Virus record (IMG/VR): IMGVR_UViG_3300032288_005212
Span: 1 to 64,000 of that record
From: an uncultured virus (IMG/VR IMGVR_UViG_3300032288_005212)
Lineage: Duplodnaviria > Heunggongvirae > Uroviricota > Caudoviricetes
Length of the DNA: 64,000 nt
Direction: 5' to 3' (one strand)
In this document: positions 907 to 38,468 of the stretch, piece after piece
Layout: each line of letters starts with the position of its first letter
Position numbering within the stretch: the stretch's first letter is position 1
Translations under genes and position numbers: made by a program
Notes under the pieces: model-generated
Database searches by the model: none
The model's input: the letters and a program-made list of their open reading frames with translations, nothing else
Told to the model about the DNA's origin: nothing

Positions 907-3900
907 TTATGGGGCTGGAGAATACAGCTTTTTTGGAGTACCAACGAGAACACCATTCTCGCTAATATTAGTGTTAACTACTCTATATGCTTGAACCCAT
1001 GCATTATACCAATAATTAGCAGTTAAATTATTAATTTGATACTTATAATTACAAGAAGAAACATTTCCTGTATTTGTTAAGTGAGTACCAGATGAAGGGC
1101 TAACAAGAGAAATTTGGAATGATGATGCTGATACAGAAGAAGCTGTAAAATAGTCAAAACTTCCTGTACTATTAACATTTGGCATTAGTGGGCTACCAGT
1201 ACCTGTGGTTTTAACTCCAAATATTTTTATTTTCTCCCCATTAGAAAAATTGTGGGGATCCTGAGTAGTTATTGTAGCAGTAGTACCTACTGCCGATACT
1301 GTAGCTATCTTTATTCTTGGGTTTACTCGTGTTATATAATAAGATGTAGCTTTTGTATAATCATTATCCTGGTCAATTTCGGCAGAATCATTTACACTGT
1401 TTGAAGACCAAAAATATATAACAAAACCGTCAAGAGAGCTAGGAACTCCAACCCATTCCCACAATAAATTTATGTTTGCTGTACTATCCGGATTAACTCC
1501 TCCAGCCGGTACATCTATTCCAGGCGGTACAATTGAAACTTGGTCTGGCGTAATAGGTGTTTTATTATTATCATTAGATTTATTATAGTTTTCCATACCA
1601 TCGACTAAAGCAGTTGCTGAATCTCCAGTATTTCTACTTGGTCTCCATATGCCTCCAATATTTGGAACTTTCTCACTTATAGGTCTCATCCAATAACGAT
1701 ACGTACAACCCGGGCTAACAGTAGTATCAGTAAAACTAGTACCACTTACAGTTGCTAATTTAACTGCTTCGTACTTATATATGTCCACTTTATCCCCAAT
1801 ATCTAAATTTGTTACACTCTCGAGCTGTAATTTATCGTCTGAGCCATTATTTATCATATCTAATATTGAAGAATTAAACATACCTTGAACTATTTTAAAA
1901 TCATTCCCTGCTTTTTGTGTACCTACAGTAGTTATTGGCGTTGATAATACAAGCCTATCTATTTTTTTATTTCTTGCCCCACTCAACGCAGTTACATCTT
2001 TTATGTAAGCCATTTCATCTAAAGTCACGTTATAAAATATATCCCCTGGATTAGCTCTATTGAATGCACTATCAACAGCTGTGGAAACAGTATTAGTAAC
2101 TGCCGCAGGTAAAAACACATAAATCTTATCACCAACAGCTTGGTCTGATATAGGGTCAACAAAACCGACAGTAGAAGCAGTTACACTACTAATATCTCTT
2201 ACACTATTTCTAGTCATATTATAAAGTTTATACGACGTTGTAGGCGTCGGAGAAAATACAGAAGGAGCTATACTTACATTAGTTGTAGTTGTACCACTAG
2301 TCGTAGTATATATAGTTGGATGAGTATAGGATAATCTTTCTCTAAAAGAAGTAGCTGATGCTCCAGATACTACAAATACTGCATCTCCAGAGGTTTGGCC
2401 AGGTATACTTAATGCAGAATTTAAAAATCCTGTTAAAGTTACTTGGTTATTACTTATTTTAGATAAAATAACGCTACTTGTATTTCTTGTAGCATTGACT
2501 AATAAGTCTCCTTTAACTGCTGTTGTAAATAATCCAGTACACGTAACGCCTCTTGGGCTAGTAGTTGCACTAGCTATTCCAATAGTTGGATGAATATGTG
2601 TAGATATTGAAGAAGTAAAAACTTCATCTTTATCTATAAATACTACCATATCTGAGTCTTGTATCAAAGGACTCATGCTTGGTATAGTTACTATATTAAG
2701 TAGACCATCCGTAATCAATCTAGAATCTATTACTTCCGCAAAAGTACCTTTTGTAGTATTCATCATTAATGATTTATTGGGTACTGGCATATAATCAGGA
2801 TTATCATAGTTTAAAACGTTTGATGAATCTCCACCATACGCAGGCCCAATATAATCAAGAGAGTAGTCATAGATACTTCTGGCTTCTCTATCGCTAGCTT
2901 GATAGTATGCTATTATATCTCCACTAGCCTGTCCAGTAATAGTTGGACTAACAGTTATAGATTTTGGACTAACTATATTAGATACTTTGCTAGCTATTCT
3001 TCTAGTTCTATTTACTACTACATCACCTACTATTACATTGGAAAAAGTATCTGGCGAAGTAACGTTCAAAGTACTAGAGCTACTTCCTGTAACAACTTTA
3101 AATGTTTTTTGTTTAATTGCTCCAGACGGCTGTTTTTGCTCAAGAGTAACACCAACTACTCCTTTATAAGGATAAACAAAATTTCCAGAAGTTTGTCCAG
3201 AGCTACTTGGTGCAATTGAAATTTGAGATACCCATCTATTTTGACTATTTTTAGAATAAACTATAGAAGTAACATTACAAGCAGCAGGGCTATTAGTAGT
3301 TGTATTTACAATCTTATCGCCAATAGAGATATTTGGTTTTTCTTTAGTATTTAAAACCATCATAGATGGAGAAGACCCACTAGCTAATTTAAATCTAGTA
3401 TAGGGTAGCATATTAATTTCTACCCCGTATGGACTTAATGGCTCTCCGGGGCTCCATACACTAAGCCTATCAAAATTACTTAAAGTAATTTGATTATTTG
3501 GTACATCTATACTCTTAATATGGGCGGACCCTAATAGAGACCTTAGAGTCGATGCAGACTGTGGGCTAGCGGTTCTCCATATTTCATACTTTACAGGATT
3601 ATTTAATAATATATCTTCTTTCCACCCATGTGTTATAAATGTGCTACCAAAAGCGGTTTGATAAAATGTCTCAAATCTGTTTCTAGGCATTACTTCTTTG
3701 AGTTTTAAAGGACCAAGAAGTAAAGGTTCACTTTTTTGAGAAGAAGCACTGTCTAATGTATATATCTTAAAATAATAAATATCTGGAGGAGCATCTTGAT
3801 ACACATATTTTTGGGAAGTAGTACCACTAATAAGAATTTTACTTTGTGTGGCATTAATTACTTCTACCATATATTTCGTTCCAGAAATATACCTATCAGA

Positions 3901-7128: not shown

Positions 7129-7448
7129 GATTCTTCCTTTGGTGTAATGTAGTAAAGTGTACTAGGTAAACTAACTACTAAGAACGGAATATTAATTCGT
7201 GTGCAACCAATTTTATCTTCTGCTGAAGGTTCACCACCAGAGGGGTGAGAGTGATATATTGTTTCTATTTCTTTTTTATATTTCAGAAAATGAAGTGGGT
7301 CAATCATCCAAGTTTCTACCTTATCTTCAGCAATATTCTCTAGCTCTACTATTTCTCCGGATTTAAGAATAAATCCACATATCTCTTCGTTTGTACCTCT
7401 TGCTTTTTCAGCAAGAGTATTAAATAGGTTTACCGTAAAGTCCAGCAC
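7098..7448 (-). CDS. Tail assembly protein K-like, JAB/MPN metalloprotease domain only
   Basis: EEICGFI...YHSHP....PS.ED JAB motif. Probable start is GTG at 7448 with GGAGG at 7457-7461. Confidence 0.8.
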   Translation of the reverse strand: MLDFTVNLFNTLAEKARGTNEEICGFILKSGEIVELENIAEDKVETWMIDPLHFLKYKKEIETIYHSHPSGGEPSAEDKIGCTRINIPFLVVSLPSTLYYITPKEESCLQFDFTDI

Positions 7449-8463
7449 TTGGAAATCCTCCGAATGGTAATGCTCTTGTGCCAAACCTTATCTTACACGA
7501 AGTTAAGCGTTTTCCGCACACGTCTTCAGACGCTGTTGAAACAATTAAATCATCTGCATCAAAAAATTTGGATCCTGTAACTTCGGTTATAGTTACAGTT
7601 AGGTCGTTGGCAGGAGTAGCACCTCCTAAAGCTGTTCCTAAAACTTTAATAGTATTACCAACAGTATATCCTGTTCCAGGATTTGATACTGTTGCAGAAG
7701 TATATGTTCCTGCACCACTTTTTACTACAGTAAGTTTTGCTCCAGATCCAGAACCTGTTATTTTTGTTGTAGCTACTTGTGTATAAGTAGTTGCTGTACC
7801 AGTCGCAGTGCCACTTAAACTTCCAACAGTAACAGCTCCACTAACACTCCAAGTGCATGGATCAGACTTATAGGTCCAAGGGCATATATTTGCAACTATT
7901 TGTCTTCTTGGAAGCATTATTCCTTCTACATCCCAAGCAGAAGAAAGCTCAAAAGTTACTTGACCTGGTATTGATTCAGACATTCTATCAATATTATATA
8001 CATCGTCTGGAAACTTTGCTTGTGGATCGGCCGAAGGATTTCCAGCTGTAAAATTACTTGCATTTAAAAATTTTACAAATGTTCTAACTCTTCTAATTTT
8101 TGCACCAACAAGGTTTGCATAGGCTTTGCAGGCTTGAGTAAAAAATAAATCATGATTTGCAACTGTTAAAGTTGGGCGAGGAGTTTCTCCTGCTGAAGAT
8201 ACTAGTAAGCCCTCTATTTGTATTGGACGAGCTGTATAAGTAATTTCTGGATTACCCCATTTTACTTCTTGATTAATTGTGCCGTATCTTTCATTATATC
8301 CATTATGAAAATAATAATTAGTAGTAGCAATGGGCACTCCTTTTGAGGTATAATATTCTTGTAAAGGAGTAAGATCTAGTTCAAATAGTTCTATAATCGC
8401 GGATGGATTATACTTGTATATTTCATTTAATATAGATGAGTTAGATTCTTGTTGTGTAGGCAT
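7420..8463 (-). CDS. Minor tail protein L (lambda gpL-like, Cys-ligated Fe-S)
   Basis: IELFELD, PRPTLTVAN, RTFVKFL, ICPWTY..DPC and CGKRLTSCKIRFG..LPFGGFP motifs. Confidence 0.9.
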   Translation of the reverse strand: MPTQQESNSSILNEIYKYNPSAIIELFELDLTPLQEYYTSKGVPIATTNYYFHNGYNERYGTINQEVKWGNPEITYTARPIQIEGLLVSSAGETPRPTLTVANHDLFFTQACKAYANLVGAKIRRVRTFVKFLNASNFTAGNPSADPQAKFPDDVYNIDRMSESIPGQVTFELSSAWDVEGIMLPRRQIVANICPWTYKSDPCTWSVSGAVTVGSLSGTATGTATTYTQVATTKITGSGSGAKLTVVKSGAGTYTSATVSNPGTGYTVGNTIKVLGTALGGATPANDLTVTITEVTGSKFFDADDLIVSTASEDVCGKRLTSCKIRFGTRALPFGGFPSAGLYGKPI

Positions 8464-8816: not shown

Positions 8817-11800
8817 TATCTTCTACCTCTAAATAATAATCCGCCAGGTCTCTGCTGGTTAAATATTTCTTGTTTTACTGCATTTGAGATTGCAGTTCCA
8901 AGTCTTCTTGAGTATTCTTCTGTGTTATCTTTTGATGACGTATTTGTTGTAGCACTTCCAGATCCATCAACTGCAACGTTAATAGCAATATTATTTGTAT
9001 TTCCGCCACCATTACTCATTGTTACAGGAATTGTGCGACCATCTGGAAGAGGTACATACGCCTCTGGGCGTGATCCTTCTCCGAACATTGCAAGTTGTGG
9101 AGTTCTTGCTATTCCTCCACGAGCATATTTTTCGAGAGGCATTGGACCAGAGGAAGACATTACGCCACCTTTTTCAAAGCTAGAGCCTACGGTTCCACCT
9201 ATTTGGCTACCAATCATTGCCCCAGCAGGGCCTCCAACTGCACCACCTATGGCTCCACCTATGGCTCCTAATACTCCGCCTAAAAGCGCTTTCTTAGGAC
9301 TAGCACCTGCAGCAAGTGCGGCAGCCATTTGTGCAAATCCTGCCGCAGCTATAGTGCCTACATTTTCTGTGGCATAAGTTTGAGCATCCCCCCAAAAACT
9401 AGTTTCTTTTACTGTATTAGCAGTATTAATACTTGTTTTATCTAAAGTATCATAAGTCATTCCACCTAACTGATAGTTTTTCTGATCCCATTTTTGTGAT
9501 TCTTTAAAATAATCTATAGTTTTTGGATCACCAGTAGGTGTAGGATTAAAACCTGCTGTATAAACTCCTTGCTCATTAATACCGCTCTTAAAACCATTCA
9601 GTGTTGGGACTAAACCGCCCGCTACTGGCATAGATGTTACAGAACCTCCGCAGCAATTTGCTGTATTATTAGCAATCTCCTGCAATAAGTCAGTATGACT
9701 TTTAGCTGTTTCAGTAATAGCCTTTGTAGTAGCTTTGGTAGCTTCAATTGCTTTATCTTGTGGGGTTTTGAATACCTCAGCTATTCCGCCCATTCCAGAG
9801 GCGGTAAATAATCCAGCTATCCCTTCTTTTAATTTATTTTTTGCAGCTTCTGCAAGTCCTTCTCTTAAACTATCGCGTACTGCAGAACCAATAGCCTTAA
9901 AAGCATTCTTTCCTTCTACTATTGCATCTACGAAGGAGTCTACAGCACTATTAACAGCATTAGAGAAAATATCAGCAAGTTCTTGAGTAATCGATTTTGC
10001 ATCTTGTAGGGTTTTTAAGAAATTTTGTCCAATCGCAGTAGAAATATCCTGCCAAGAAGTCGTCATTTTTTGCGTCCAGCCAAATACAGCTTGTTGTGCT
10101 TGTATTTGCGCTGCAGTTATTTCTGATACTGCAGCTTCTGTTTCCGAACGAGTTGCGGCTGCGGCCGCTTGAGCTGCTTGCGGTAAAAGTACGGCGGCCT
10201 CTGCAAATACTCCAGGTAATGTATCTATTAATGTTTGTATATTACCTAGCTCAGCGGGATCTGTTGTTTGATTTTTTAAAGTTTGAAGTTGGCTTTTTAA
10301 TGTAATTTCTTGTATTTTTAATTGAGCGCCCATTAATTTATATTCAAGATCTATAATTCTTAGTTTCATTTCTTCTTCTTCACGAAGCAGCGCTTTTTTC
10401 TTTTCGCCAAACTCCATTTCTAGTTGAAGAGTCTGTTGAGCTGTTAATTCATACTCACCAATACCTTTATTACGAAGATTTATAGCTTTTAATTCGTTTT
10501 CTCTAATAGTTCTTTCGTTGTCTAGTATAGTAGACTTTGAAGAATTAATTTTTTCCTGAATATTTCCGGTTACATTAGCAAGGTCAATTTGGCGCTGAAT
10601 CAAATCGGCTGAAACCTGAGCAGTGGCTTCAGTATTAGCCTTATCAAGTACAGCGACTTTTAATTTATCATCAGTTATAGCCTTTTCTCTATCTAAGTTT
10701 GCTTGTGTTCTTTGTTGTACAGCAATTTGAGAGTAGTTTAAACCTTGAAGTGCTGTATAAGCATCTTTCAATGCTACAAGATTCTGTTGTGTTTCCGTAT
10801 CTTGTGGAGTAGCTGCAGATTGTTTTTGAAGATCCTTAATATCTTTAGCAAGTTCAGCCCTTAAAATGGCTAACTTAGCATTATTAAGTTTTTCTTCCAT
10901 ATTGATTGTACGAAGTTTTAGCCCATACTCTCTATTTATATTAGCTGTTTTTTGATTTTCAAATTTGCGAAAAACTTCCAATTGCTGGCGAGCAGAGAGA
11001 GCCGCCTCACCGCCTTGTTGAATATTTTGTAGTTGTAAGGAAGTTTCTTCTATACTTATCCGAGACTCAAGTATTGATTTTGAAAGATCAAGTTGTTTTT
11101 GTAGTATTGAAACAATTTCCTGCTCACCGCTCATTCTTCTTTCTAAATTAGTATAAGCTCTTTTAGCGTTTTCGATTTCCGTGCTAGCTGAAAAATTGGC
11201 TTGTTCTGTTATAAGTATACCACGTCTTGAAGCCAATTCTATTAATTTAGTTTCAGCAGCTCGTCTATCTGCGGTTTCATCTGATACTAATTTTTGTTGT
11301 TGATTTATCTCATCAGTAATATATGAAATTTCATCTGTATATATCTTATCTTGCAGCTTTTGCCTTGAATCAAAACTAGCTTTAGTTTCAAAATTAGAAA
11401 GCTTTATTAATGAATTTATATACTCTAAACTCTGTTTTTCTCTATTTAATATCTGAAGCTTTATATCCATGGCTTCTTTTATAGCAGTTTCTTGTTCTAA
11501 TCTTTTTTCTGCTTCTTCTGATAATTTTTCTGCTCTTCCAGAAGCTTTTTGTGCAATTCTCTCAATTATCTCTAATATTTTAAGTCTATCTTTTTCACCC
11601 GTTATTTGCTCTAGACCTAAACCTTGAACTTCTAGGCCTACTGATTTTAAAGCATCTTCAATTTTTTTAACGTCTTGATAAGTAAAATTTACGCGAAAGT
11701 CTACTGATTTTATTTCAGCTACCGCTCTACTAAAGGATTCGGCCCCCTTTGTCGCAGAATCTAACTCTGCTTTAGCTACATCTAAACCTAAAAATTTTGC

Positions 11801-28784: not shown

Positions 28785-28914
28785 GATAAAATTTTTGGAA
28801 GGGTTAATTTAGATTATTAAGCGCCTTTCGAGTTGAAAAAATCCCAAAGTTGCGCGTGAAGGTGTGCGCCCGGCTGTGTGAATATTACCAGTCTCGGAAC
28901 CGCCCCTCCCCACC

Positions 28915-28930
28915 TGGCACGCCCCTTGCA
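28915..28930 (+). promoter_or_regulatory. sigma54 -24/-12 box
   Basis: TGGCAC-GCCCC-TTGCA. Confidence 0.7.
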
Positions 28931-28966
28931 TGTTCAAAACCTGGCACGAAATTTTCCACAGCAAAA

Positions 28967-29010
28967 TGGTAATATTACCACTTGCCTTTGCCCAAAGCCA
29001 CCACTATACT
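28967..29010 (+). promoter_or_regulatory. TGGTAATATTACCA palindrome + sigma70 promoter
   Basis: Perfect 14-bp palindrome at 28967-28980, then TTGCCT-17-TATACT. Confidence 0.7.
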
Positions 29011-29036
29011 GTGCCCATCACATAGAGGAACACGTC

Positions 29037-29345
29037 ATGCCGAAGATCACCCAAGCCCAAGAGTATATGTGGAAGCCCGCGATGGAAGCCTACAATTCTT
29101 GCTGTGGCGGATGCGGCAGCCCGCTTGATCTGGAATACGATCACATTGTGCCCCGTTGCCTTGGCGGTTCCGATCATGTTTCTAATATTCAAATCCTGTG
29201 CCATCATTGCAACCAACACAAAGGCAAGGTAGCCTTTCCCAAGGTATCGCCCCGTATGCCTGAGATGTCGATTCCGCAGATTCTCGAGAATCGCAAGGCC
29301 TTTGTGTACTCGATCAGAACATGGAAAATTACCATTGCATCCTGA
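29037..29345 (+). CDS. HNH endonuclease
   Basis: CGGCG..LEYDHIVPR..GGSD..SNIQILCHHCNQHKG; start ATG 29037 after GAGGA. Confidence 0.85.
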   Translation: MPKITQAQEYMWKPAMEAYNSCCGGCGSPLDLEYDHIVPRCLGGSDHVSNIQILCHHCNQHKGKVAFPKVSPRMPEMSIPQILENRKAFVYSIRTWKITIAS

Positions 29346-29391
29346 TTCGACCTACCCTATACTGACTCCACCTAAACAAGGAAACGCAAAC

Positions 29392-29613
29392 ATGAACGCA
29401 CAACAGATCCTCGACGTACTCAAAACCGGCGTGTACTTCGTCACGTTCGAGAAGGACAACGGAGAAATCCGCAGCATTAAGGGCTCGGCCCCTACTACTG
29501 CGAACATTCGCACAGATGGAATCGTTCCCATTGTGGAAGATGGAACAGGAGCATGGAAATCCTTCCGCGCTTCTGCTATGCTCACGATCGTACCCGAAAC
29601 CCTTGTACTCTAA
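29392..29613 (+). CDS. WYL_2-like / Sm-like SH3 beta-barrel protein
   Basis: L..G...VTFEK.NGEIR...G....WKSFR motif. Confidence 0.65.
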   Translation: MNAQQILDVLKTGVYFVTFEKDNGEIRSIKGSAPTTANIRTDGIVPIVEDGTGAWKSFRASAMLTIVPETLVL

Positions 29614-29623
29614 GGAATACGCC

Positions 29624-29922
29624 ATGAACAATTGCAAATCGTTCGCCCAATACCTCGCCCTGATCGCAAACCAAAAGCAACGGCAACGGCCCGCGATCTT
29701 CTGGCCCGTACCCTCCAGCAAGAGGAAGGCGGCATGAAAGACTTTAACATGAACCCGGAACTCTATCGCAAATTCCGGGCCGATCTTCTGGGATGGTGTG
29801 CCTTTTATCGCGCATACTCTGCGAACGAATGCGCGACGGTTGGCAAGGTAGCCCACCGTGCAATCCGCCGACAGATGGCCCACCTTCGTCAATCCTACTT
29901 TGTGGGGAATATTACCTATTGA
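29624..29922 (+). CDS. Two coupled small hypothetical ORFs (29624-29737, 29734-29922)
   Basis: AAGGA SD; ATGA overlap. Confidence 0.5.
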
Positions 29923-29979
29923 CGAGATGCCTGGCCGTATGTCATAATGGTGGCAACGGCCAGGGCCGCGCCGAAAACC

Positions 29980-29995
29980 TGGCACGCTTATTGCA
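29980..29995 (+). promoter_or_regulatory. sigma54 -24/-12 box
   Basis: TGGCAC-GCTTA-TTGCA. Confidence 0.7.
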
Positions 29996-30003
29996 TCAGT
30001 TGA

Positions 30004-30034
30004 CCTAGGGCCAAGATGCGAATCATTCTCATTT
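30004..30034. repeat. CCTAGG-N4-Fur-like palindrome, copy 1
   Basis: CCTAGG gcca AGATGCGAATCATTCTCATTT. Confidence 0.85.
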
Positions 30035-30161
30035 AGGCCTGGTCCGCGCCGATTTTACCACACTAAAATATGCGCTGTCAATACCTCAAGAATGTGAACA
30101 AATACCATTGCAATTCGAGTCTTCCTCTGTCATACTGATCCCACCAGATAGAGGAAAACAT

Positions 30162-31036
30162 ATGTCACACGTAGCCTTTGAACTTCGCAACGAACGCAGC
30201 AACATAGACTGGGCCGTATATATCGACGGCAAACACTGGAAAACCTTTCCGGGCGATCGCCACCTTGCAGAATACAAGGTCAAGGAAATGTGCAAGCGGA
30301 AGACCGCCGAGACTGGCCGTCGTTGGGATGTGGTCGCTGTCCACTGGTAATATTACCGCTTGACGGCGAGCGATTGATCCGCCATACTGTGCCCATGTTC
30401 AACGGAGATCAGACAATGCAAAACGAAATCCGCGCTGCACAATTCCAAGCCGCACAAGCCAGCTTGGCCGCCTTTGACTGCTACCGCACTGCGAAGCGTG
30501 AGATCATCAAGGGAGATCGCCAGATCGGCCAGCTCTGGAGCCGGTGGGGCGATATGCTGATGGCGATCAACGCGAAGGCGAACGATGACATTCGTTTTCT
30601 GGAATGGGCGCAAAGCATGGAAGAAGCCTACGTTGACGGGTACTATGGGGAGTGATTATGAGAATCGGAAAACTGCCGAACCGCGGCATAGTTGACAAAC
30701 TACTAGTAATAGTTCAAGGCCTGGCAACAGTGGCGGATGGCCTAATCATGATCGGCAGCTTCGGATTCTATGGTTCGATGATGTCGATGGATATTTCACG
30801 GTATCGTGCATGGCGCATGATTCAGAGAGGCAGAAAAAATGCAGTGTGAACACCAGTTCAAACCCGGAAAGATTGTAATCGGCACGCCAACAAATGGTAG
30901 CAGTTACAATCCGAAAATGTGGGGCCGTGGCGAAGGCATCTGGCTCGATGGTCGAAAGGCCAGGCTAGTTCCATGCGAAAAGTGTGCCAAGTGTGGTAAG
31001 ACTCTTGTAGACCATAATTTGTACTACGGCTGGTAA
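30162..31036 (+). CDS. Four small pre-early ORFs (30162-30350, 30416-30655, 30652-30849, 30839-31036)
   Basis: SD sequences, coupled overlaps, own promoters at 30108-30136 and 30360-30388. Confidence 0.55.
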
Positions 31037-31039
31037 ATC

Positions 31040-31055
31040 TGGCACGCGTCTTGCA
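31040..31055 (+). promoter_or_regulatory. sigma54 -24/-12 box
   Basis: TGGCAC-GCGTC-TTGCA. Confidence 0.7.
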
Positions 31056-31064
31056 GGGCGAGGC

Positions 31065-31095
31065 CCTAGGTAGTTGTTGCGAATTATTCTCATTT
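31065..31095. repeat. CCTAGG-N4-Fur-like palindrome, copy 2
   Basis: CCTAGG tagt TGTTGCGAATTATTCTCATTT. Confidence 0.85.
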
Positions 31096-31236
31096 AGCGC
31101 GCTTGACAAAAAGGCGCGCTTCGCGCCAACGCGTGCAAAATCAAGAGTAAATTTTATGTACTAAGTCACAAATAATTCTTGACTCCTGGGATTGTCAGTC
31201 TGTATAATGGCGACTTCAGCAATGGAGATCGAAACG

Positions 31237-31461
31237 ATGCATCACTACACTGAAACTCTGGAATCTGGCAACTGGCTCATCGAACTCAGCCCGACCACTG
31301 AATACGGGTATTTTGAGAATCAAAAAACCGGCAGCGGTGGCGGCCTTTGGTTTGAAGGAAACGAGCTGGTAGACTATGATGGTGTTCTGTCGCTGCCAGT
31401 AGCAGTTGCAAGCGCGCTCACTGGCGCTGGATATGTACTCGGAGAGGAGTTTTTTGCGTGA
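31237..31461 (+). CDS. Hypothetical phage protein
   Basis: GGAG SD; YGYFE....G.GGLWF....LVDYDGV motif; promoter TTGACT-18-TATAAT at 31179-31208. Confidence 0.6.
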   Translation: MHHYTETLESGNWLIELSPTTEYGYFENQKTGSGGGLWFEGNELVDYDGVLSLPVAVASALTGAGYVLGEEFFA

Positions 31462-31859
31462 AACTGGTTATCAGTAAAAAGTTCCCGAGAGCCGTTCGGA
31501 GAATAATCCGAGCGGCTATCGCTGCAAGTAATGCACACGCTCCGATGAACGTGAGAACTCTTATTGTAAAACCTACAAAAGGTCACGATTATCACGGACT
31601 AGCGAAAGAAAACGAAGGTGTGGCGATTATTGAAATCTGCCATACTGAGCCCGATTATCTCGATACTGTATTTCATGAATGCTACCATATTTATCAATAC
31701 TCGCAGGGTATTGTAAAATCAGAATATAATGGATTTAAATGGCGCGGTGTTTATATTCCGCTGTTTCTTTACAATATGTTTCATTCGTTTGTGCCTTTTG
31801 AAATATCAGCAAAGGCATATGCTAAGAAAATGTGCAAAAAGGTGGAGGCATTGCAATGA
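31458..31859 (+). CDS. Zincin-like metallopeptidase
   Basis: TVFHECYHIYQ (HExxH)...PFEISA. Confidence 0.7.
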   Translation: MKLVISKKFPRAVRRIIRAAIAASNAHAPMNVRTLIVKPTKGHDYHGLAKENEGVAIIEICHTEPDYLDTVFHECYHIYQYSQGIVKSEYNGFKWRGVYIPLFLYNMFHSFVPFEISAKAYAKKMCKKVEALQ

Positions 31860-32065
31860 TTCGAATTACTGCAGCATATGGGCGCAATTACTATTCCGCT
31901 GAAATTGTGCGTCAAGATTGGGAAAGCGATAAAGACTTTCGAATGATTGACGGCGGCGGATATATTAATCGCTCCGATTGGCTAAAATATAATAAAGGGT
32001 TGGATAGCATTGTGTTTTCTAATGGTGTGGTATTAATGCACCTTGAGCATGGTGTACTTCCATGA
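31856..32065 (+). CDS. Hypothetical protein
   Basis: GGAGG SD; AYGRNY.S...DW...KDF motif. Confidence 0.55.
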   Translation: MIRITAAYGRNYYSAEIVRQDWESDKDFRMIDGGGYINRSDWLKYNKGLDSIVFSNGVVLMHLEHGVLP

Positions 32066-32073
32066 TGGAGGTA

Positions 32074-32107
32074 CCTAGGTGCCAAATGAGAATAATTCTC
32101 ATTTGGC
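32074..32107. repeat. CCTAGG-N4-Fur-like palindrome, copy 3 (perfect 13-1-13)
   Basis: CCTAGG t GCCAAATGAGAAT-A-ATTCTCATTTGGC. Confidence 0.9.
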
Positions 32108-32210
32108 TGTCACTGCGCCAAATAGCGTGCAAAATCAAGAGTAAAAATTCACACTTGAACCTGGGCGGTGAGATGCTATACTGCTCAAGTCTAAACCGGA
32201 GAGCCAAACC

Positions 32211-33535
32211 ATGATGACTCGCTCGCAACACGCCGAACTCGCCGCAGAAGTCGCTGAGGCCGTAGTAAAGCCCACGCAAACCGTCGGGCAGGTGGCAGAG
32301 CATATTTTTAATGCGGCTGAAGTCATGCGGAACATTATGCTTGATTCCGCAAACATGACGCAGCAGGAACTGCACGGGCATATCCAGTTTGCAACCGAAT
32401 TGCAACGTGCATATGTACGTCGCGCAACTATGCTGGGGATACTCTGATGCTGTATAATCTCGGCACACTGGTAATGCTTTTTACTGGCATACTAGTCTCG
32501 GGGTATGTTGCTATAAAAATGCTCGAACACTACTTTGGAGAGTAAAACATGAATTTTTCGATGACGATTGAGAATGCTACGGTTTCGACTGTCGTTCGGA
32601 ACGAATACGAAATTATTCGGCATATCGAAGCCTGCTTTCTCGCGGCTGGATATGACTCCGATACTTTTGCTGAGTATCTGGCACACTATCTGGAGCTTTA
32701 TCATGAGATGACGGTACTTCCGGAAAAAGAGTACACGCAGGCGCTCGCCGAAGCTCGGGAGGAAGCCTATGATGAAGGTTTCGATGATGCTACTGCCGAA
32801 AAAAAGGAAGAGGCAGAATATGCCTGCAATTGCCCGATGTGCAAAGATCCCGTCGCCTATGATGCGGGCTGGAATGATGGATTCCAAGGCGAAGAAAATC
32901 TCGACGAAGATATGGCAAAAATTCCCGCCTATATGGTAGGATACGAGAATGGAAAGATCGACCGAGAAAAAGGCCGCTACAATGGCGAAGCAATCTGAGG
33001 AGTAATGATATGATCATCACGCGTATGTCGATTTTCTCTGGCAAGATTCACTCTTGGGATATTCCGGTAACGGAAGAGCAGATCGATCGCTGGCAGCGCG
33101 GTTGTCTGATTCAGAATGCGATGCCGCACTTGACTGCGGATCAGCGAGAGTTTATTATGACGGGCACCACTCCTGATGAGTGGAATCAAATGTTTGGGGA
33201 GGATGCAGCCTAATGCACGCTTTTCAAATGAACTACGGTACAGTGGATATGGGAATGAATAAATATACACGGGCCGCGATTGCTTTGGGCGCTACCGTCG
33301 AGGACGGTATAAACTGGACGTGGGCAAATCATTTTGCCACGCGAGAGCTGGCTCAGGAATTTATCAATATGTTTCCTGAGATGGAAACACGCGGCATCTA
33401 TACTGATAGCCCGGGCTTTTCTGTGAGGTTTCGATGAAAAATCCTGTAGCAAAGTTTAGCCGCCAGGTCAACCGATCGGCGGTTCAGCGGGATCGTAAAA
33501 AAGCCGCAAAGCGCGGATATAGGAAACACAAATGA
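32211..33535 (+). CDS. Five small pre-early ORFs (32211-32447, 32549-32998 acidic, 33010-33213, 33213-33437, 33434-33535 basic MKNPVAK...RKHK peptide)
   Basis: GGAG SDs, coupled stops/starts; 33010 ORF has the IQNAMPHLTADQREFIMTG phage motif. Confidence 0.6.
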
Positions 33536-33867
33536 GAAACACAAAAAACTATCTTGCACTCGGGCACGATATTGAAGAAAACTTTTTCTTTATAAAGATT
33601 GGGTTATCTGATGACCCCGAAGAACGTGTATCTAAACTCAGAATGAAACTGCTACACGTTTGGGAAAACATATGGATATCTGATGGCGACTACTCTTGCA
33701 CAGTAGAAGCTTTTTTCTTAAAAACTATGGGTTACTCTCATTATACTTATAGTAACCATAAATTTTCAGGGTCATCCGATTGCATTGGAAGATTTAAAAC
33801 AAAAGAAGAAGCTTTATTCATTGGCAGGCAAATGGTAAAGTTTATTTTATCCCTTCAATATGACTAG
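33532..33867 (+). CDS. GIY-YIG / T5orf172-like protein
   Basis: FIKIGLSDDPEERV..L motif; AT-rich relative to flanks. Confidence 0.55.
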   Translation: MRNTKNYLALGHDIEENFFFIKIGLSDDPEERVSKLRMKLLHVWENIWISDGDYSCTVEAFFLKTMGYSHYTYSNHKFSGSSDCIGRFKTKEEALFIGRQMVKFILSLQYD

Positions 33868-33878
33868 GGCAGAAGGCC

Positions 33879-33934
33879 CGATGCGACCCATTCGCATCGG
33901 CGACCTAGGTCGTTGTTGAGAATCATTCTTATTT
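33879..33934. repeat. Double Fur-like boxes flanking one CCTAGG (copies 4 and 5)
   Basis: CGATGCGACCCATTCGCATCG-N4-CCTAGG-N4-TGTTGAGAATCATTCTTATTT. Confidence 0.8.
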
Positions 33935-33949
33935 CCGCGCGGAGCGCCA

Positions 33950-33978
33950 ATTATAGCGTGCAAAATCAACGGCGTCAA
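33950..33978 (-). promoter_or_regulatory. Leftward sigma70 promoter with GC-rich discriminator
   Basis: TTGACG-17-TATAAT-TGGCGC. Confidence 0.75.
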
Positions 33979-34009
33979 GTGTAAATGTGTGTAATATTGC
34001 ACAAACTCC

Positions 34010-34040
34010 AAATGAGTCTGGTTCTCATCTCGCACCTAGG
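34010..34040. repeat. Fur-like box-N4-CCTAGG, copy 6 (inverted)
   Basis: AAATGAGTCTGGTTCTCATCT cgca CCTAGG. Confidence 0.75.
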
Positions 34041-34267
34041 GCGCGCCCCTGGCGCTTGTCAATAGGAAATATTTCACATTCCTGGGGGTGGATCTGCGGG
34101 CGGGGAGGCCTCATAATAGCGGCTTCTGGTGAGGGTTCACCGGAAACCGAAAGGGGAAGTCAATGGCAATATTCACACAAATTCGGAATGCGCTGCGGTC
34201 ATTCTTTCGGGTACAATGTGAAACATCGGTGGGGCAGTGTGCTTCACCCAAATCGGAGAGTAAAACT

Positions 34268-34579
34268 ATGTCGCTCTACACTGAGTCGATGGTGTCGGAA
34301 CTGATGGCTCGCGCGAGCTGGTCGTATGATGACGCGGTTGCGTTCGCTGAGAAGCATTCCAGCGTGTCGGTACGTTCGGTTATCAGCAAAATCAAGTCTC
34401 TGAAGCTGGACTACACCGCGAAGCCGAAAGCTGCGACGGCGAAGACTGACAAGGTGCGGAAGTCGGAGATCGTGGGCGAGATCGCACTCGCGCTCGGTAT
34501 TCAGGCTGACGCAATCTCGGGCCTTGCCAAGGCTGACGCCGCTTGCCTTCGCGTTCTTCTGGCGAAGGTTGCGGGCTAA
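34268..34579 (+). CDS. T5 A2-like small DNA-binding protein, paralog 1
   Basis: YT..M......SVRSVISKIKSL.LDY...VRK.EIV.EIA...I.GL.KAD resembles T5 A2/D3-type proteins; GGAG SD. Confidence 0.65.
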   Translation: MSLYTESMVSELMARASWSYDDAVAFAEKHSSVSVRSVISKIKSLKLDYTAKPKAATAKTDKVRKSEIVGEIALALGIQADAISGLAKADAACLRVLLAKVAG

Positions 34580-34779
34580 TGGTTCGGGTCGCTGCCATCT
34601 TGGGAACCGGGGCAATGTGCATTGCCCCCTTTTTCATCGACACGCTTCCTGGCAAATTGTGTGCCATATGCGGCCTGTTACTTTTGACAATACAGGCACT
34701 TGATCTGCGCGCTTACAATCTGGTACTCTTAAATCTGGTCGGCATTGCTGGCTACACTTTTTCAAGCATGGGAGCCTAG
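34579..34779 (+). CDS. Small membrane protein
   Basis: Hydrophobic; TAATG coupling. Confidence 0.55.
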   Translation: MVRVAAILGTGAMCIAPFFIDTLPGKLCAICGLLLLTIQALDLRAYNLVLLNLVGIAGYTFSSMGA

Positions 34780-34782
34780 AAT

Positions 34783-35259
34783 ATGTACCGCTCGATTTTT
34801 GATCTCGATGGGACTGTAATCGATTCCACACACCGCCACGCTACGCTGCCTGATGGGTCGCTTGATCTGGCACATTGGATTGAAAATTCCACGCCTGAGA
34901 AAATCGCTGCGGACTCTTTGCTGCCGCTTGCCGATTATATGCGGATGTTCTTCCCGCATCACGAGGTGCTGGTATGCACTGCCCGCGTGATGGGGGAAGC
35001 CGATTACGAATTTTTGTTCGATAACGGATTGCAGGCTGATGCGATTCTTTCGCGCCCTGCTGGCAACCGTCTGCCGGATGGGTTCCTTAAGGAAATGCTG
35101 CTGCGCGATCATGCAACACGCCGCGGCCTTACTTGGGTGGAATTTGTAAAAAATACCACGATCTTCGATGACAACGCTTCTGTGCTTGACACGCTCGGAC
35201 GGGTTGGAATTCGGACGATCTGCGCCCGCACTCTTAACCGGGTGCTGGCGGAGGACTGA
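34783..35259 (+). CDS. HAD-superfamily phosphatase (possible nucleotidase, T5 Dmp analogue)
   Basis: FDLDGTVIDS motif I, VCTAR motif II, K and FDDN motifs III/IV. Confidence 0.8.
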   Translation: MYRSIFDLDGTVIDSTHRHATLPDGSLDLAHWIENSTPEKIAADSLLPLADYMRMFFPHHEVLVCTARVMGEADYEFLFDNGLQADAILSRPAGNRLPDGFLKEMLLRDHATRRGLTWVEFVKNTTIFDDNASVLDTLGRVGIRTICARTLNRVLAED

Positions 35260-35270
35260 CACCGACCAGG

Positions 35271-35307
35271 TGCTGCGAATGGTTCTCATTCGCATTGCCG
35301 CCCTAGG
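35271..35307. repeat. Fur-like hexamer array-N4-CCTAGG, copy 7 (inverted)
   Basis: TGCTGCGAATGGTTCTCATTCGCATTG ccgc CCTAGG. Confidence 0.75.
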
Positions 35308-35405
35308 TCGCCGACCTGGGCGTGTCAATAGGAAATAATACCGCTTAACTGGGATGTGCATCATGGTATACTCCACGTCCCAACTACTGCTCGGGAGAGC
35401 ATTTC

Positions 35406-36125
35406 ATGGCTAAAAAGCAATTCTATCTGATCATCGATACCGAAACGACAATCGATGAAAAAGTCGCAGATTTCGGTGCCGTTATCGTTGATCGGAAAGG
35501 CCGCATTGCTGCCCAATGTGGAATTCTCATTAATGGCATTTACAATGATCGGGAAAACCATCCGCTCTTTTATAATGAATACTCGGGCGACCTTTGGAAA
35601 AAGTCGAGCCTTGATAAGCGATATAATAACTATTCGGCAATGCTCGCCAACGGTTCCCGTATGCTCGCATCAATTCCTGCGATTAATACTTGGCTCGCAA
35701 AAGCGGCAAACAAGTTTAATCCCACACTGACCGCATATAATCTGGCATTCGATCTCGGTAAATGCGTCAATACTGGAATTGATCTTTCCTATTTCGAGAA
35801 TCGGTTTTGCCTTTGGCACGCTGCATTTAATAAATGGGCGCATACTAAAAACTATCGCAATTTCGCTCTACAAATGCACGCTTTTAATGCTCCGACTAAA
35901 TTGCAAAATATGTCGTTTAAAACGAATGCGGAAACAATGGCACGTTTTATTACTAATTCGCCCGATATGCCTGATGAACCGCATACCGCACTCGAAGACG
36001 CAATCTATTATGAATTGCCAATTCTGAAACGATTAATCGAAACGACAGAGCGTAATGTATTTATGAATCCCGAGCCTTTTGACTGGCGCAAGGTTCAGGT
36101 CAAAGATTGGTTTACCGCTAAATAG
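35406..36125 (+). CDS. DEDDh 3'-5' exonuclease
   Basis: IIDTET, AYNLAFD and EPHTALEDA motifs. Confidence 0.9.
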   Translation: MAKKQFYLIIDTETTIDEKVADFGAVIVDRKGRIAAQCGILINGIYNDRENHPLFYNEYSGDLWKKSSLDKRYNNYSAMLANGSRMLASIPAINTWLAKAANKFNPTLTAYNLAFDLGKCVNTGIDLSYFENRFCLWHAAFNKWAHTKNYRNFALQMHAFNAPTKLQNMSFKTNAETMARFITNSPDMPDEPHTALEDAIYYELPILKRLIETTERNVFMNPEPFDWRKVQVKDWFTAK

Positions 36126-36233
36126 GTGACATATGACAGAATTGGAAACTTTGAAAATGCGAATGGAAATTATTCGGACGGTTTGTCCGATTCTTTCCCT
36201 CATCCTTCAATTGATAATTCTGGGGCGTTTGAT

Positions 36234-36644
36234 ATGAAAATATCTAAATCCTTTCGCAATTCGCAACGCAAAATAATCGAGGCGGCTGTTAAAAATAGCC
36301 GCCTTGATTTGAATCTGCCCGATCTGCGCGATATTAAAGTAAAATCGAATAAATCAAAATCGCTCGACGGTTGGGCTGATGTTTCAAATGGGTATGCGGT
36401 AATTTCAATTAATCGCCGATTAAAAGGCGCGGAATTGTTTTGCTGCGTTGCACATGAAATGGTACACGTTAGCCAATTACTATCCGGCCGCCTTGTAACT
36501 GCCGCTCCGAATCTTTTTATCTGGAATGGAAAGGTTACGCGATTAACGGAGGAAAAAATGGCTAAAATGAATCCCGCAAAATATCGGGCATTGCCTTGGG
36601 AGCGGGAAGCATATTATTATGGCGATTCTTTTTTGGGAGATTAA
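36234..36644 (+). CDS. Zincin-like metallopeptidase (paralog of 31458)
   Basis: VAHEMVHVSQ...Y..LPWEREAY. Confidence 0.75.
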   Translation: MKISKSFRNSQRKIIEAAVKNSRLDLNLPDLRDIKVKSNKSKSLDGWADVSNGYAVISINRRLKGAELFCCVAHEMVHVSQLLSGRLVTAAPNLFIWNGKVTRLTEEKMAKMNPAKYRALPWEREAYYYGDSFLGD

Positions 36645-36647
36645 AAC

Positions 36648-36794
36648 ATGGGACCGTGGCTTGTTTTGTTTGTCGGTTTGATTTATTTAATTATTGCGGC
36701 GGATTTTGCCTTTCGGAATAATAACTGGTGGATGGCATCCGTTTATTTTGGATATGCGTTTGCCAATGTGGGGCTTTTTCAAATAGGGAAATAA
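36648..36794 (+). CDS. Small 2-TM protein (48 aa)
   Basis: Hand translation MGPWLVLFVGLIYL...FGYAFANVGL; GGAG SD. Confidence 0.55.
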   Translation: MGPWLVLFVGLIYLIIAADFAFRNNNWWMASVYFGYAFANVGLFQIGK

Positions 36795-36822
36795 TACCGC
36801 TTGACGCCAGGAGGGCGCGGGC

Positions 36823-36853
36823 CCTAGGTAGATGATGCGAATCATTCTCATCT
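36823..36853. repeat. CCTAGG-N4-Fur-like palindrome, copy 8
   Basis: CCTAGG taga TGATGCGAATCATTCTCATCT. Confidence 0.85.
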
Positions 36854-36871
36854 CGCTCCTAGCTTGCGCCT

Positions 36872-36887
36872 AGCAAGAACCATGCCA
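36872..36887 (-). promoter_or_regulatory. sigma54 -24/-12 box (minus strand)
   Basis: TGGCAT-GGTTC-TTGCT. Confidence 0.65.
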
Positions 36888-36915
36888 ACATTTGTGGGAA
36901 TAATGCCAGCGCTTC

Positions 36916-37104
36916 GCGCCAGCCAGAGTGGGAAATCAATGTCAAGTTGCGTACGTGCAATTTTATTGGGAATTTTTCACATACTTGTCTCCGCGCCAGC
37001 GTACCACAGTGCGAAATCAATGTCAAGTAAGAAAGACAAAGAACATATGTGAATTTTTCTCAGGTCTGCGCCATTATACGAGTGCGAAATCAATAATGTC
37101 AAGT
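36916..37104 (-). repeat. Three tandem ~76-bp units, each a leftward sigma70 promoter-like element
   Basis: GCGCCA...AGTG(C/G)GAAATCAAT..GTCAAGT at 36916, 36993 and 37068. Confidence 0.8.
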
Positions 37105-37225
37105 AATTTCCACACAGAATAAATGTGAATATTACAGCAGTCTTCCGCTTGCGTTTTCTCCTGCCAGCCTTCATAATACTCTTGTTGTTGAGGCAGTCCC
37201 TAGTTCAAATTCAATGGAGAAATAT

Positions 37226-37522
37226 ATGAGTGCTTATTCTAATTCGATGGTCACCGAGCTCTGCGCCTCCGCGCACACTTATGAAAGCGCAGCAGCTTTT
37301 GCTAGCAAGCACAATCTGTCGACGCGCAGTGTTGTGAGCAAGATCAAGTCGCTTGGCCTGGACTATAGGAAAAAAGAAGTAGTTTCTGTTAGCCAGACGC
37401 GGATTCGGAAGGCTGACGTGGTTGCAGAGATTGCCGCCCGGCTTTCGCTTGACAGCGAAAAGTTGGCGGGGCTGGGGAAAGCGGACGCTGCTAGTTTGCA
37501 GCAGCTTTTGAAAGCTATTTAA
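37226..37522 (+). CDS. T5 A2-like small DNA-binding protein, paralog 2
   Basis: Clearly alignable to the 34268 ORF (STRSVVSKIKSLGLDY, IRKADVVAEIA, GLGKADAA). Confidence 0.65.
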   Translation: MSAYSNSMVTELCASAHTYESAAAFASKHNLSTRSVVSKIKSLGLDYRKKEVVSVSQTRIRKADVVAEIAARLSLDSEKLAGLGKADAASLQQLLKAI

Positions 37523-37525
37523 AGC

Positions 37526-37552
37526 AAAAGCCGGCATTTGCCGGCTTTTTTT
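37526..37552 (+). terminator. Intrinsic terminator
   Basis: AAAAGCCGGC-ATTT-GCCGGCTTTTTT. Confidence 0.85.
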
Positions 37553-37733
37553 ATATTTGTCCACTTTTGGCAAAAAAACTTGACTTTTTTGGGCTAGAAA
37601 GCCCGCCACCGAGTTGCAATCCGTTTTCCCCCAGCTACCCCTCTTCGAGGGAAAATTCTGAATACCTATTCGAAAAAACTTGACTTTTTTTGCTCATGAT
37701 GATATAATATATACTTTTTTGGAGGGTCTAAAA

Positions 37734-38033
37734 ATGTATACAGAAGATGAAGTAACTATTCTACAGCAATATCCGAGTCTTTCCGTGGAAGAACTGGCAG
37801 CTCAGCTGGGACGCAGTGAGAGATCAATTATTGGAAAGCTGAGTCGCCTGGGAATTTATCAGCGAAAAACCTATGTGAGCAAAACTGGTTCACCACCCAT
37901 TAGCAAACTGGAAATTGTGGCTGAGATAGAGTCTGCATTGCAGATGAAGCTTGAAGGGCTAGAAAAGAGTCCAAAAGGTGTATTGCTTTCTTTGCGAGAT
38001 AAACTGAGCGGCGGGGCATTTCCAAATTGCTAG
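37734..38033 (+). CDS. T5 A2-like small DNA-binding protein, paralog 3
   Basis: MYTEDE...SERSIIGKLSRLGIY...ISKLEIVAEI...LEGLEKSPK; promoter TTGACT-17-TATAAT at 37680-37708. Confidence 0.65.
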   Translation: MYTEDEVTILQQYPSLSVEELAAQLGRSERSIIGKLSRLGIYQRKTYVSKTGSPPISKLEIVAEIESALQMKLEGLEKSPKGVLLSLRDKLSGGAFPNC

Positions 38034-38061
38034 GAGAAGCTCCTTCGAAGGGAGAAAAAGT

Positions 38062-38090
38062 AAAGGGAAGCTTAGTTGCTTCCCTTTTTT
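38062..38090. terminator. Bidirectional-looking intrinsic terminator
   Basis: AAAGGGAAGC-TTAGTT-GCTTCCCTTTTTTT. Confidence 0.8.
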
Positions 38091-38094
38091 ATTA

Positions 38095-38468
38095 GTCCAT
38101 GAAAGTCGCATTAGTGTAAAAGTTACAGGCAAAATTAGCCCCTTCAGTAGAAGCAAGCCAAGTAGTTATTTAACGAAGATTAACTACTTGGCAATTGATT
38201 TAAACAAGTCAATGTTAAGAATACGCTGCTTAGAGTTAGTTCTTAATGTTCTATTTGATTTAGTTACAGTCGAAAAAAGATTAAACGACGAAGAACAATA
38301 AGTTGTGTCATTCACGGGACCGGGAGTCAAACTCCACCCTGAAACAGGGTACCCTCCGTGTGACCCGGTCCCGTTATAGGACACTAACTATTGTAACTTC
38401 TACTGTATAATTTTTTTCTCCGTCGGATTAGAACAATAAGAAGTTTCTGTTTTAGCTTCTCAAAAACA
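38095..38468. other. Non-coding, stem-loop-rich segment (injection-stop-signal-like DNA or ncRNA)
   Basis: 12-bp perfect stem at 38157-38192, multibranch stem at 38300-38390, long-range pairings; leftward promoter at 38475-38503. Confidence 0.5.

Follow-up and report, generated by a model that had tools for sequence, protein, structure and literature searches.

What reads the palindrome that recurs between the small genes at 30.0-36.9 kb of an uncultured Caudoviricetes virus (IMG/VR record IMGVR_UViG_3300032288_005212), each copy at a fixed distance from the hexamer CCTAGG; is that hexamer a part of the same site or an operator in its own right; and what would such a pairing do in the genome of a lytic phage? 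The window analyzed here, to which all coordinates without another label refer, comprises the first 64,000 nt of the 106,084-bp record. The answer towards which we lean, with a confidence only a little above even, is that the eight elements are composite operators in a block equivalent to the pre-early region of phage T5, and that host Fur and a phage regulator would jointly control this block through them.

The window holds eight CCTAGG hexamers (at 30004, 31065, 32074, 33904, 34035, 35302, 36823 and 39829), which is no enrichment over the 8.55 expected; seven of them lie within 30.0-36.9 kb, and seven adjoin the palindrome, at exactly 6 nt (N6) from an ATGMGAAY half-site. The palindrome itself (ATGMGAATNATTCTCAT, scanned as ATGMGAAT-N-ATTCTCAT with up to 3 mismatches) gave 20 strand-hits in the window versus 2.6 expected, nearly all of them within the same 30.0-36.9 kb, and the arrangement CCTAGG-N6-ATGMGAAY fits all eight sites listed below (the half-site starting with TTG at sites B and D2), with no further composites in the whole 106,084-bp record. 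A preliminary description of this DNA, made from the letters only, had placed eight palindromes at a constant 4 bp from CCTAGG; the constancy was confirmed, the 4 bp of its 21-mer frame being the N6 used here. A metagenome scan with the composite returned 18 contigs of sister phages, 70-92% identical to the block (L-numbers are our handles for compared sequences). In IMG/VR the composite pattern has no other match. Mismatches were scored against the 19-mer Fur consensus AATGAGAATnATTCTCATT over 18 positions, boxes with at most 3 being called strong; the genome contains six matches at this threshold versus 0.1 in shuffles. The sites are as follows:

Site A, 30004-30034, plus strand: CCTAGG (30004-30009), N6 and box ATGCGAATCATTCTCAT (30016-30032); 2 mismatches; orthologue in L144.
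Site B, 31065-31095, plus strand: CCTAGG, N6 and TTGCGAATTATTCTCAT; 3 mismatches; orthologues in L129, L132, L136 and L138.
Site C, 32074-32107, plus strand: CCTAGG, N6 and a perfect box within an exact 13-1-13 palindrome (32081-32107); 0 mismatches; orthologues in L128, L129, L132, L133 and L143.
Site D1, 33879-33909, minus strand: weak box ATGCGACCCATTCGCAT (33881-33897), with a CCTAGG (33904-33909) common to D1 and D2; more than 5 mismatches.
Site D2, 33904-33934, plus strand: CCTAGG, N6 and TTGAGAATCATTCTTAT; 3 mismatches.
Site D3, 34010-34040, minus strand: weak box ATGAGTCTGGTTCTCAT, N6 and CCTAGG (34035-34040); 4 mismatches; orthologues in sister phages.
Site E, 35273-35307, minus strand: hexamer array CTGCGAATGGTTCTCATTCGCAT, then CCTAGG (35302-35307), the nearest half-site being at N6; 4 mismatches.
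Site F, 36823-36863, plus strand: CCTAGG, N6, ATGCGAATCATTCTCAT, N6 and CCTAGC (36858-36863); 3 mismatches.

Judging by these mismatch counts, the "eight" boxes are better described as five strong and three weak ones. The array at site E reads GCGAAT-GAGAAC-C-ATTCGC, with the palindrome center shifted by one hexamer and only the CCTAGG-proximal half-site fitting N6, which bears out the register shift suspected there earlier; the 13-1-13 palindrome reported for site C likewise proved exact. The position of D1 is occupied in sister phages by a GGCATGC..GCATGCC palindrome instead of the weak box, and the far-side CCTAGC at N6 of site F is conserved in six sister sites.

Every sequence test at our disposal identifies the palindromes as Fur-box sequences. 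The phage palindrome is identical to the published Fur-box consensus of Xanthomonas campestris, AATGAgAATcATTctCATT (PMC1790865); the GCGAATCATTCTC variant at sites A and F is a Burkholderia-type Fur box (the Burkholderia box being GTAAACGCGAATCATTCTC; PMC10991261), and Enterococcus Fur sites have been described as TGAGAATGATTCTCA. When one genome per bacterial species was scanned, exact AATGCGAATNATTCTCATT was found in at least 120 bacterial genomes versus roughly 17 by chance, its carriers, among the matches listed, being mostly Burkholderiales (Massilia, Ralstonia, Undibacterium, Comamonadaceae), with some Xanthomonadales-like gammaproteobacteria and few alphaproteobacteria. TonB-dependent receptor genes start 6-200 nt downstream of AATGCGAATNATTCTCATT in 10/10 loci, a biased sample picked for a neighboring open reading frame (ORF) of ~700 aa; in the first loci taken in order, i.e., an unselected sample, feoB and a piuC-like oxygenase gene lie downstream. 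Overlapping hexamer arrays in a 6-bp register, the typical build of a Fur operator, are seen both at site E and at the T5 sites considered below, and 15 nt of the T5 box recur immediately before iucA on E. coli plasmids, in what we take to be the aerobactin Fur operator reportedly footprinted by de Lorenzo et al. (1987). The earlier proposal of Fur boxes is supported by these comparisons; three of the eight boxes are weak, D1 falling outside the consensus match.

Repeated palindromes might also be hairpins in RNA or DNA (terminators or processing sites), or portable cassettes driving gene shuffling in the way of the promoter-early stem-loop (PeSL) elements, reportedly mobile regulatory cassettes of T4-type phages (Arbiol et al., 2010), and both readings seem very unlikely here. 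Site C could indeed fold as a 13-1-13 hairpin, and among its orthologues a single compensatory change was seen in the flanks (gccaa/ttggc to gccag/ctggc); however, half-site pairs that would mispair (C/T, A/G) amount to 9/21 and occur as often as matched pairs, the complementarity of the flanks is at the level expected from base composition, and no U-tract follows the palindromes, which is why the palindrome is taken to be a protein operator and not a hairpin. An RNA hairpin or intrinsic terminator was accordingly rejected, there being neither a U-tract nor selection for pairing. As to cassettes, sister phages do reorder the same small pre-early genes with modules at the junctions, which suggests cassette shuffling via repeated regulatory modules; these differences in gene order are, however, taken as a consequence of the repeats and not as their function, and shuffling would leave an invariant CCTAGG and N6 with free spacers unexplained. 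Compared with 29000-36200 of the window, L129, L131, L136 and L141 have additional E-type modules where the reordered genes meet.

The phasing is where the sister phages are most informative. In the 18 contigs, 52/66 CCTAGG have a half-site at exactly N6 and no good boxes occur without CCTAGG, while over 39 distinct composite sites the hexamer is invariant, the six spacer bases carry 0-1 bit and the outer flank extends the hexamer to GCGA-CCTAGG-TCGC. As N6 is kept while the spacers vary, the phasing is under selection, and the weight previously placed on it was justified. The hexamer seems to lead a life of its own as well: in sister phages CCTAGG is the core of a GGCGA-CCTAGG-TCGCC palindrome (the extended operator having the form GGCGACCTAGGTCGCC), and eight of the remaining copies, in L141 and L144, are centered, without a box, in the 17-nt spacer of pre-early promoters (TTGACG-N5-CCTAGG-N6-TATACT), the full layout being an UP element, TTGACG, GGCGA-CCTAGG-TCGCCC, TATACT, a Shine-Dalgarno sequence and the ATG of ORFs of 51-101 aa. 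This promoter-spacer use was seen in sister contigs only, the palindrome having been lost from the orthologous promoters of the window (e.g., 30360-30388). Since it forms the core of its own palindrome and stands alone in promoter spacers, CCTAGG is best regarded as a separable operator and not simply as an annex of the Fur box held at a fixed distance; the one protein complex that, in the preliminary description, reads both parts is hypothetical.

Whose protein would read the hexamer? Near bacterial Fur-type sites CCTAGG was found in 0/120 cases among the matches listed; CGACCTAGGTCG is present in 13/401 genomes of Burkholderiales, taken as candidate hosts, in at most one copy each and more rarely than a reversed control, and no enrichment of the CCTAGG palindrome was found in 5 plus 401 bacterial genomes. 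On these counts a host composite, i.e., Fur together with a host partner such as the "CTAG-kinking" protein of the preliminary description, is rejected for the genomes examined. The lack of enrichment in Burkholderiales favors a phage-encoded reader, and the reader of CCTAGG is most likely a different, phage-encoded regulator. An argument from restriction was dropped: outside the block CCTAGG occurs once versus 12 expected from base composition (not significant versus a Markov expectation of 3.0), as part of a general avoidance of palindromic hexamers. Outside 28801-38100, ACATGT occurs 0 times, TACGTA once and CTTAAG three times versus 32 expected each, and GCATGC, TGCGCA and CCTAGG once each versus 12, whereas CTGCAG and CTCGAG are in excess. 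As for methylases, no enzyme of the N4/N6 or Dam type was found in the phage; a C5 cytosine DNA methyltransferase (PF00145, 35 bits) is encoded at G000 88486-90056 (L267; G000 being the whole genome) and is apparently split into overlapping ORFs of 204 and 319 aa.

The six larger gaps between the genes of a plus-strand block (28.8-38.0 kb, ~26 small genes) hold the sites; the block's G+C content is 46-51% versus ~38% in the rest of the window. That the phage is T5-like, as had been supposed, is supported by its terminase, 49% identical to those of T5-like Vibrio phages, and by a homologue of the T5 pre-early 5'-deoxynucleotidase gene dmp, which has 905 cultured-phage matches, mostly in phages of enterobacterial, Vibrio and Aeromonas hosts, located in the left terminal repeat in the annotated listed records. 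The A2-like proteins expected beside the sites are also encoded there:

34268-34579, plus strand: A2-like helix-turn-helix (HTH) paralogue 1, 46% identical to the product of gene 37226, just downstream of the D cluster.
34783-35259, plus strand: dmp homologue, E 2.5e-16 to T5 dmp.
37226-37522, plus strand: A2-like HTH paralogue 2, with a weak phrog_1725 match, downstream of the F cluster.
37734-38033, plus strand: A2-like/GcrA-like HTH paralogue 3 (PF07750, 27.3 bits; phrog_323 and weak phrog_1725 matches).

The PHROG of T5 A2 is phrog_1725 (E 4e-52); gene 34268 itself has no PHROG match and is tied to the A2-like set via its identity to 37226. Going by the dmp homologue and the A2-like genes, the block is the probable equivalent of the T5 pre-early, first-injected terminal repeat. 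A homologue of T5 A1 was not found in the whole genome (tblastn against G000); A1, essential in T5, has homologues in other box-bearing contigs (L034, L088 and L098). DNA searches of cultured phages, near and distant, with the whole block yielded nothing useful, and a neighboring protein of 511 aa had no match among cultured phages.

From the identities, conservation, phasing and contexts described so far we infer Fur occupancy, the identity of the second reader and the regulatory outcome, as follows. A host Fur dimer would occupy the 19-bp box in an iron-replete cell, as its identity with bacterial operators suggests; the Fur would be the host's, since no Fur homologue was found among the phage genes. 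A second regulator would bind the abutting CCTAGG operator, and it would probably be phage-encoded, given the promoter-spacer use, the clade specificity and the lack of enrichment in candidate host genomes, the three A2-like HTH paralogues, two of which have the D and F clusters just upstream, being the candidates. With only an invariant 6 nt between the operators, the proteins bound to them would either be in contact or be mutually exclusive, and the pre-early block would thus take a joint input of host iron status, through Fur, and phage timing. The outcome might be control of antisense or of sense transcription, or Fur might serve as an architectural or sponge partner.

Control might run partly through antisense promoters just upstream of the box (at A, D2 and 37102->37047, and in many distant relatives), a location that would let Fur repress them. 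The signals around the sites are as follows:

30052-30081, minus strand: sigma70-type consensus promoter TTGACA-18-(TGg)TAAAAT running into box A, antisense to the genes, conserved in L144.
33950-33978, minus strand: promoter TTGACG-17-TATAAT running into box D2, its spacer being the GTGCAAAATCAA repeat.
37047-37102, minus strand: promoter TTGACA-18-TATAAT (-35/-10 at 37102->37073), GGCGC and a degenerate box (37047-37063) without CCTAGG.
29980-29995, plus strand: sigma54-like TGGCAC-N5-TTGCA, 8 nt ahead of the site A CCTAGG, conserved in L144.
31040-31055, plus strand: sigma54-like TGGCAC-N5-TTGCA, 9 nt ahead of the site B CCTAGG, conserved in sister phages.

The GTGCAAAATCAA repeat forms the spacer of these antisense promoters, and the box follows the -10 element at 17-19 nt at A and D2 and at 9 nt in the 37047 unit. 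Ten distant IMG/VR contigs have the box 9-14 nt beyond the -10 element of a TTGACA-N17/18-(TGn)TAWAAT promoter, which in L055 fires antisense to the genes (orientation checked by homology to window genes). On the outer side of CCTAGG stands a sigma54-like -24/-12 box at A, at B and in the D2-type units of sister phages, a -35 TTGACA at N15/16 for D3, E and F, and nothing for C. In the A-, B- and D2-type units of the phage and its sisters the sigma54-like box precedes CCTAGG by 8-10 nt, which would put a start site on the hexamer.

Several further signals accompany the block. All five sigma54-like TGGCAY-N5-TTGC boxes of the 106-kb genome are located in it (28915-28930, 29980-29995 and 31040-31055 on the plus strand; 34651-34666 and 36872-36887 on the minus strand). 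Every A-D2 box and every F repeat is followed, always on the same strand, by a (T/C)GGCGC motif, at a distance of 8-15 nt for boxes A, C and D2 and of ~25 nt for box B (minus-strand TGGCGC at 31123, 32115, 33944, 36916, 36993 and 37068; CGGCGC at 30046-30051); these motifs might be where the DNA is nicked or where the antisense promoters start transcription, and the major nick of T5 is at a GCGC directly beside its box array. Three tandem GTGCGAAATCAATGTCAAG units at 36935-37106, each a minus-strand -35 plus spacer, resemble the DRD repeats of T5, and two of them precede degenerate boxes (36965-36983 and 37047-37063). Early promoters at 28968-29010, 29909-29948, 30349-30388, 35331-35372 and 36789-36806 have a common upstream motif, AATAWTACC-NN-TTGAC, and several contain CCTGG in the spacer.

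How widespread the boxes are can be judged from T5 itself, where AATACGAATCATTATCATT, AATGAGAATCATTATCATT and AATGAGATTGATTCTCATT, plus half-copies, lie at 9552-9710 (AY543070). This stretch falls within what is annotated as the injection stop signal, with DnaA boxes on one side and the major nick on the other, and the boxes are followed by GTGCRAATCCGACA repeats. A comparison of 25 T5-like phages named such repeats direct repeat C, palindromes E-J and DRD, and Fur is absent from it (Davison, bioRxiv 10.1101/866236); in the literature consulted, no paper links Fur to the T5 first-step-transfer region. The 31-nt box C query matched 522 cultured phage records, mostly T5-like and with enterobacterial or other gammaproteobacterial hosts, many of them T5-sized genomes matched ~8-9 kb from the left end in 2-8 places each, inside the terminal repeat where one is annotated. 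In IMG/VR, the palindrome alone was present in at least 118 contigs, at least 20 of which encode dmp and/or A2-like homologues beside it. The distant dmp/A2-bearing L055 has Fur-like boxes at 1580-1640, 2330-2390 and 3700-3760, with GTTTCACGTGAAAC palindromes at variable distance and no CCTAGG; GTTTCACGTGAAAC may be this lineage's own second operator.

The T5 arrangement brings up another role for the protein, namely, that Fur, alone or with host proteins, is structural and pauses or anchors the entering DNA, or that replicated phage DNA soaks up Fur and so derepresses iron uptake, the titration suggested in the preliminary description. The T5 box array does coincide with the injection pause region, five strong and three weak boxes per copy multiplied by replicated genomes could conceivably rival cellular Fur, and the boxes are off the sense promoters. 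We nevertheless rate this as quite improbable, for a single infecting genome cannot titrate Fur, the boxes of the window are scattered among cassettes along 7 kb and do not make up a single untranslated tract, the block has no DnaA-box cluster or LexA box (three loose DnaA-like 9-mers only), and control of transcription is the role suggested by their strict association with an operator of the promoter type.

Somewhat more has to be conceded to the possibility, which we still deem unlikely, that the palindrome is the operator of a phage A2-like HTH protein. The resemblance to Fur boxes would then be fortuitous or a case of mimicry, and CCTAGG would be contacted in addition by that protein or by one of its paralogues. 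A2-like genes, often in several copies, accompany the boxes in every related contig; A2 of T5 is an essential DNA-binding pre-early protein without a known target, and its PHROG is matched by two of the window's paralogues; the densest clusters, D and F, are directly upstream of A2-like genes, as with autoregulated repressors; the box never occurs without CCTAGG in the clade; and Vibrio phage phi 3 has replaced the boxes by other repeats, as if the site co-evolved with a phage protein. Yet the A2-like proteins have diverged nearly beyond recognition (E ~3e-4 to the PHROG, with no BLAST match to T5 A2), whereas the box is nearly identical from T5 to the window phage, which fits a conserved host protein better; the box also has the Fur-specific hexamer-array build, and its exact sequence precedes bacterial iron-uptake genes.

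Joint control by Fur and a phage regulator, the reading that we prefer, has several observations to contend with. Three of the eight boxes are weak, and every second half-site reads GCGAAT, which differs at two positions from the hexamer GATAAT of E. coli; the boxes lie ~60-95 nt upstream of sense -35 elements, which is not the classical repressing position, and the read-in promoter is kept only at A, D2 and the 37047 unit, with remnants at B and C. The A2-like family of conserved phage DNA-binding proteins is always found with the boxes in related contigs and could be the true reader. The T5-like phi 3 lacks the boxes, although its host has a classical Fur; their slot is filled by another 30-bp repeat in four copies, while the DnaA boxes and the DRD-like repeats are retained. 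Lastly, the putative terminal-repeat status of the block derives from homology only. In phi 3 (L268), the repeats at 7400-7560 are four tandem TTAGCTAGAACTAATAAAGGTAAGGCTAAA, which contain CTAG, between the DnaA boxes and the DRD-like GTGCAAAACCGA.

While the T5 repeats have long been known and Fur boxes are textbook matter, what appears to be new is that the boxes of a distant aquatic T5-like phage match betaproteobacterial-type Fur operators, that they are dispersed between gene cassettes, and that they are strictly phased with a second operator that is also used in the promoter spacers of sister phages. The two-step entry of T5 and its dense first-injected repeats have been without an identified host factor for decades, and Fur is a concrete candidate, exact Fur-operator matches being conserved between coliphage T5 and a freshwater phage only distantly related to it; within the clade of the latter, moreover, the fixed coupling to a second operator offers a clean genetic handle (the spacing and the hexamer). 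Should Fur be the reader, lytic phages would read or rewire the iron status of the host from the first minute of infection, which would bear on phage-host ecology in iron-limited waters and on phages entering via iron receptors. A wider generalization, at present doubtful, would be that T5-like phages generally use host Fur as a structural and regulatory co-factor on the first-injected DNA and that, in the present aquatic clade, a phage-encoded A2-like protein docks beside it via CCTAGG, so that iron status gates pre-early transcription or entry and the replicating phage strips Fur from the host regulon.

Among the known systems, the Fur operators of Proteobacteria are the closest in sequence: the 19-bp 9-1-9 sequence is identical, GAGAAT and GCGAAT hexamers occur in both, as do variants built as hexamer arrays, and with the exact phage sequence preceding bacterial TonB-dependent receptor and feoB genes, whereas the sites described here belong to a lytic phage, lie between pre-early cassettes and off the sense promoters, and are fused at N6 to CCTAGG. 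Repeat Region 3, or the injection stop, of T5 has the same palindrome family in a dmp/A2-bearing first-injected block, and its GTGCRAAT...-type repeats resemble the GTGCAAAATCAAG and GTGCGAAATCAATGTCAAG repeats of the window; it is, however, concentrated in a single dense tract without coding function, next to DnaA boxes and a nick, while in the window the boxes are dispersed over six gaps, with no DnaA cluster and with CCTAGG as a partner. The PeSL elements of T4-type phages, finally, are comparable in being repeated promoter-containing intergenic modules that flank small early genes, the gene order of which varies at the modules, but the modules of the window are without a terminator stem-loop, and their conserved parts are two operator-like palindromes at a fixed distance.

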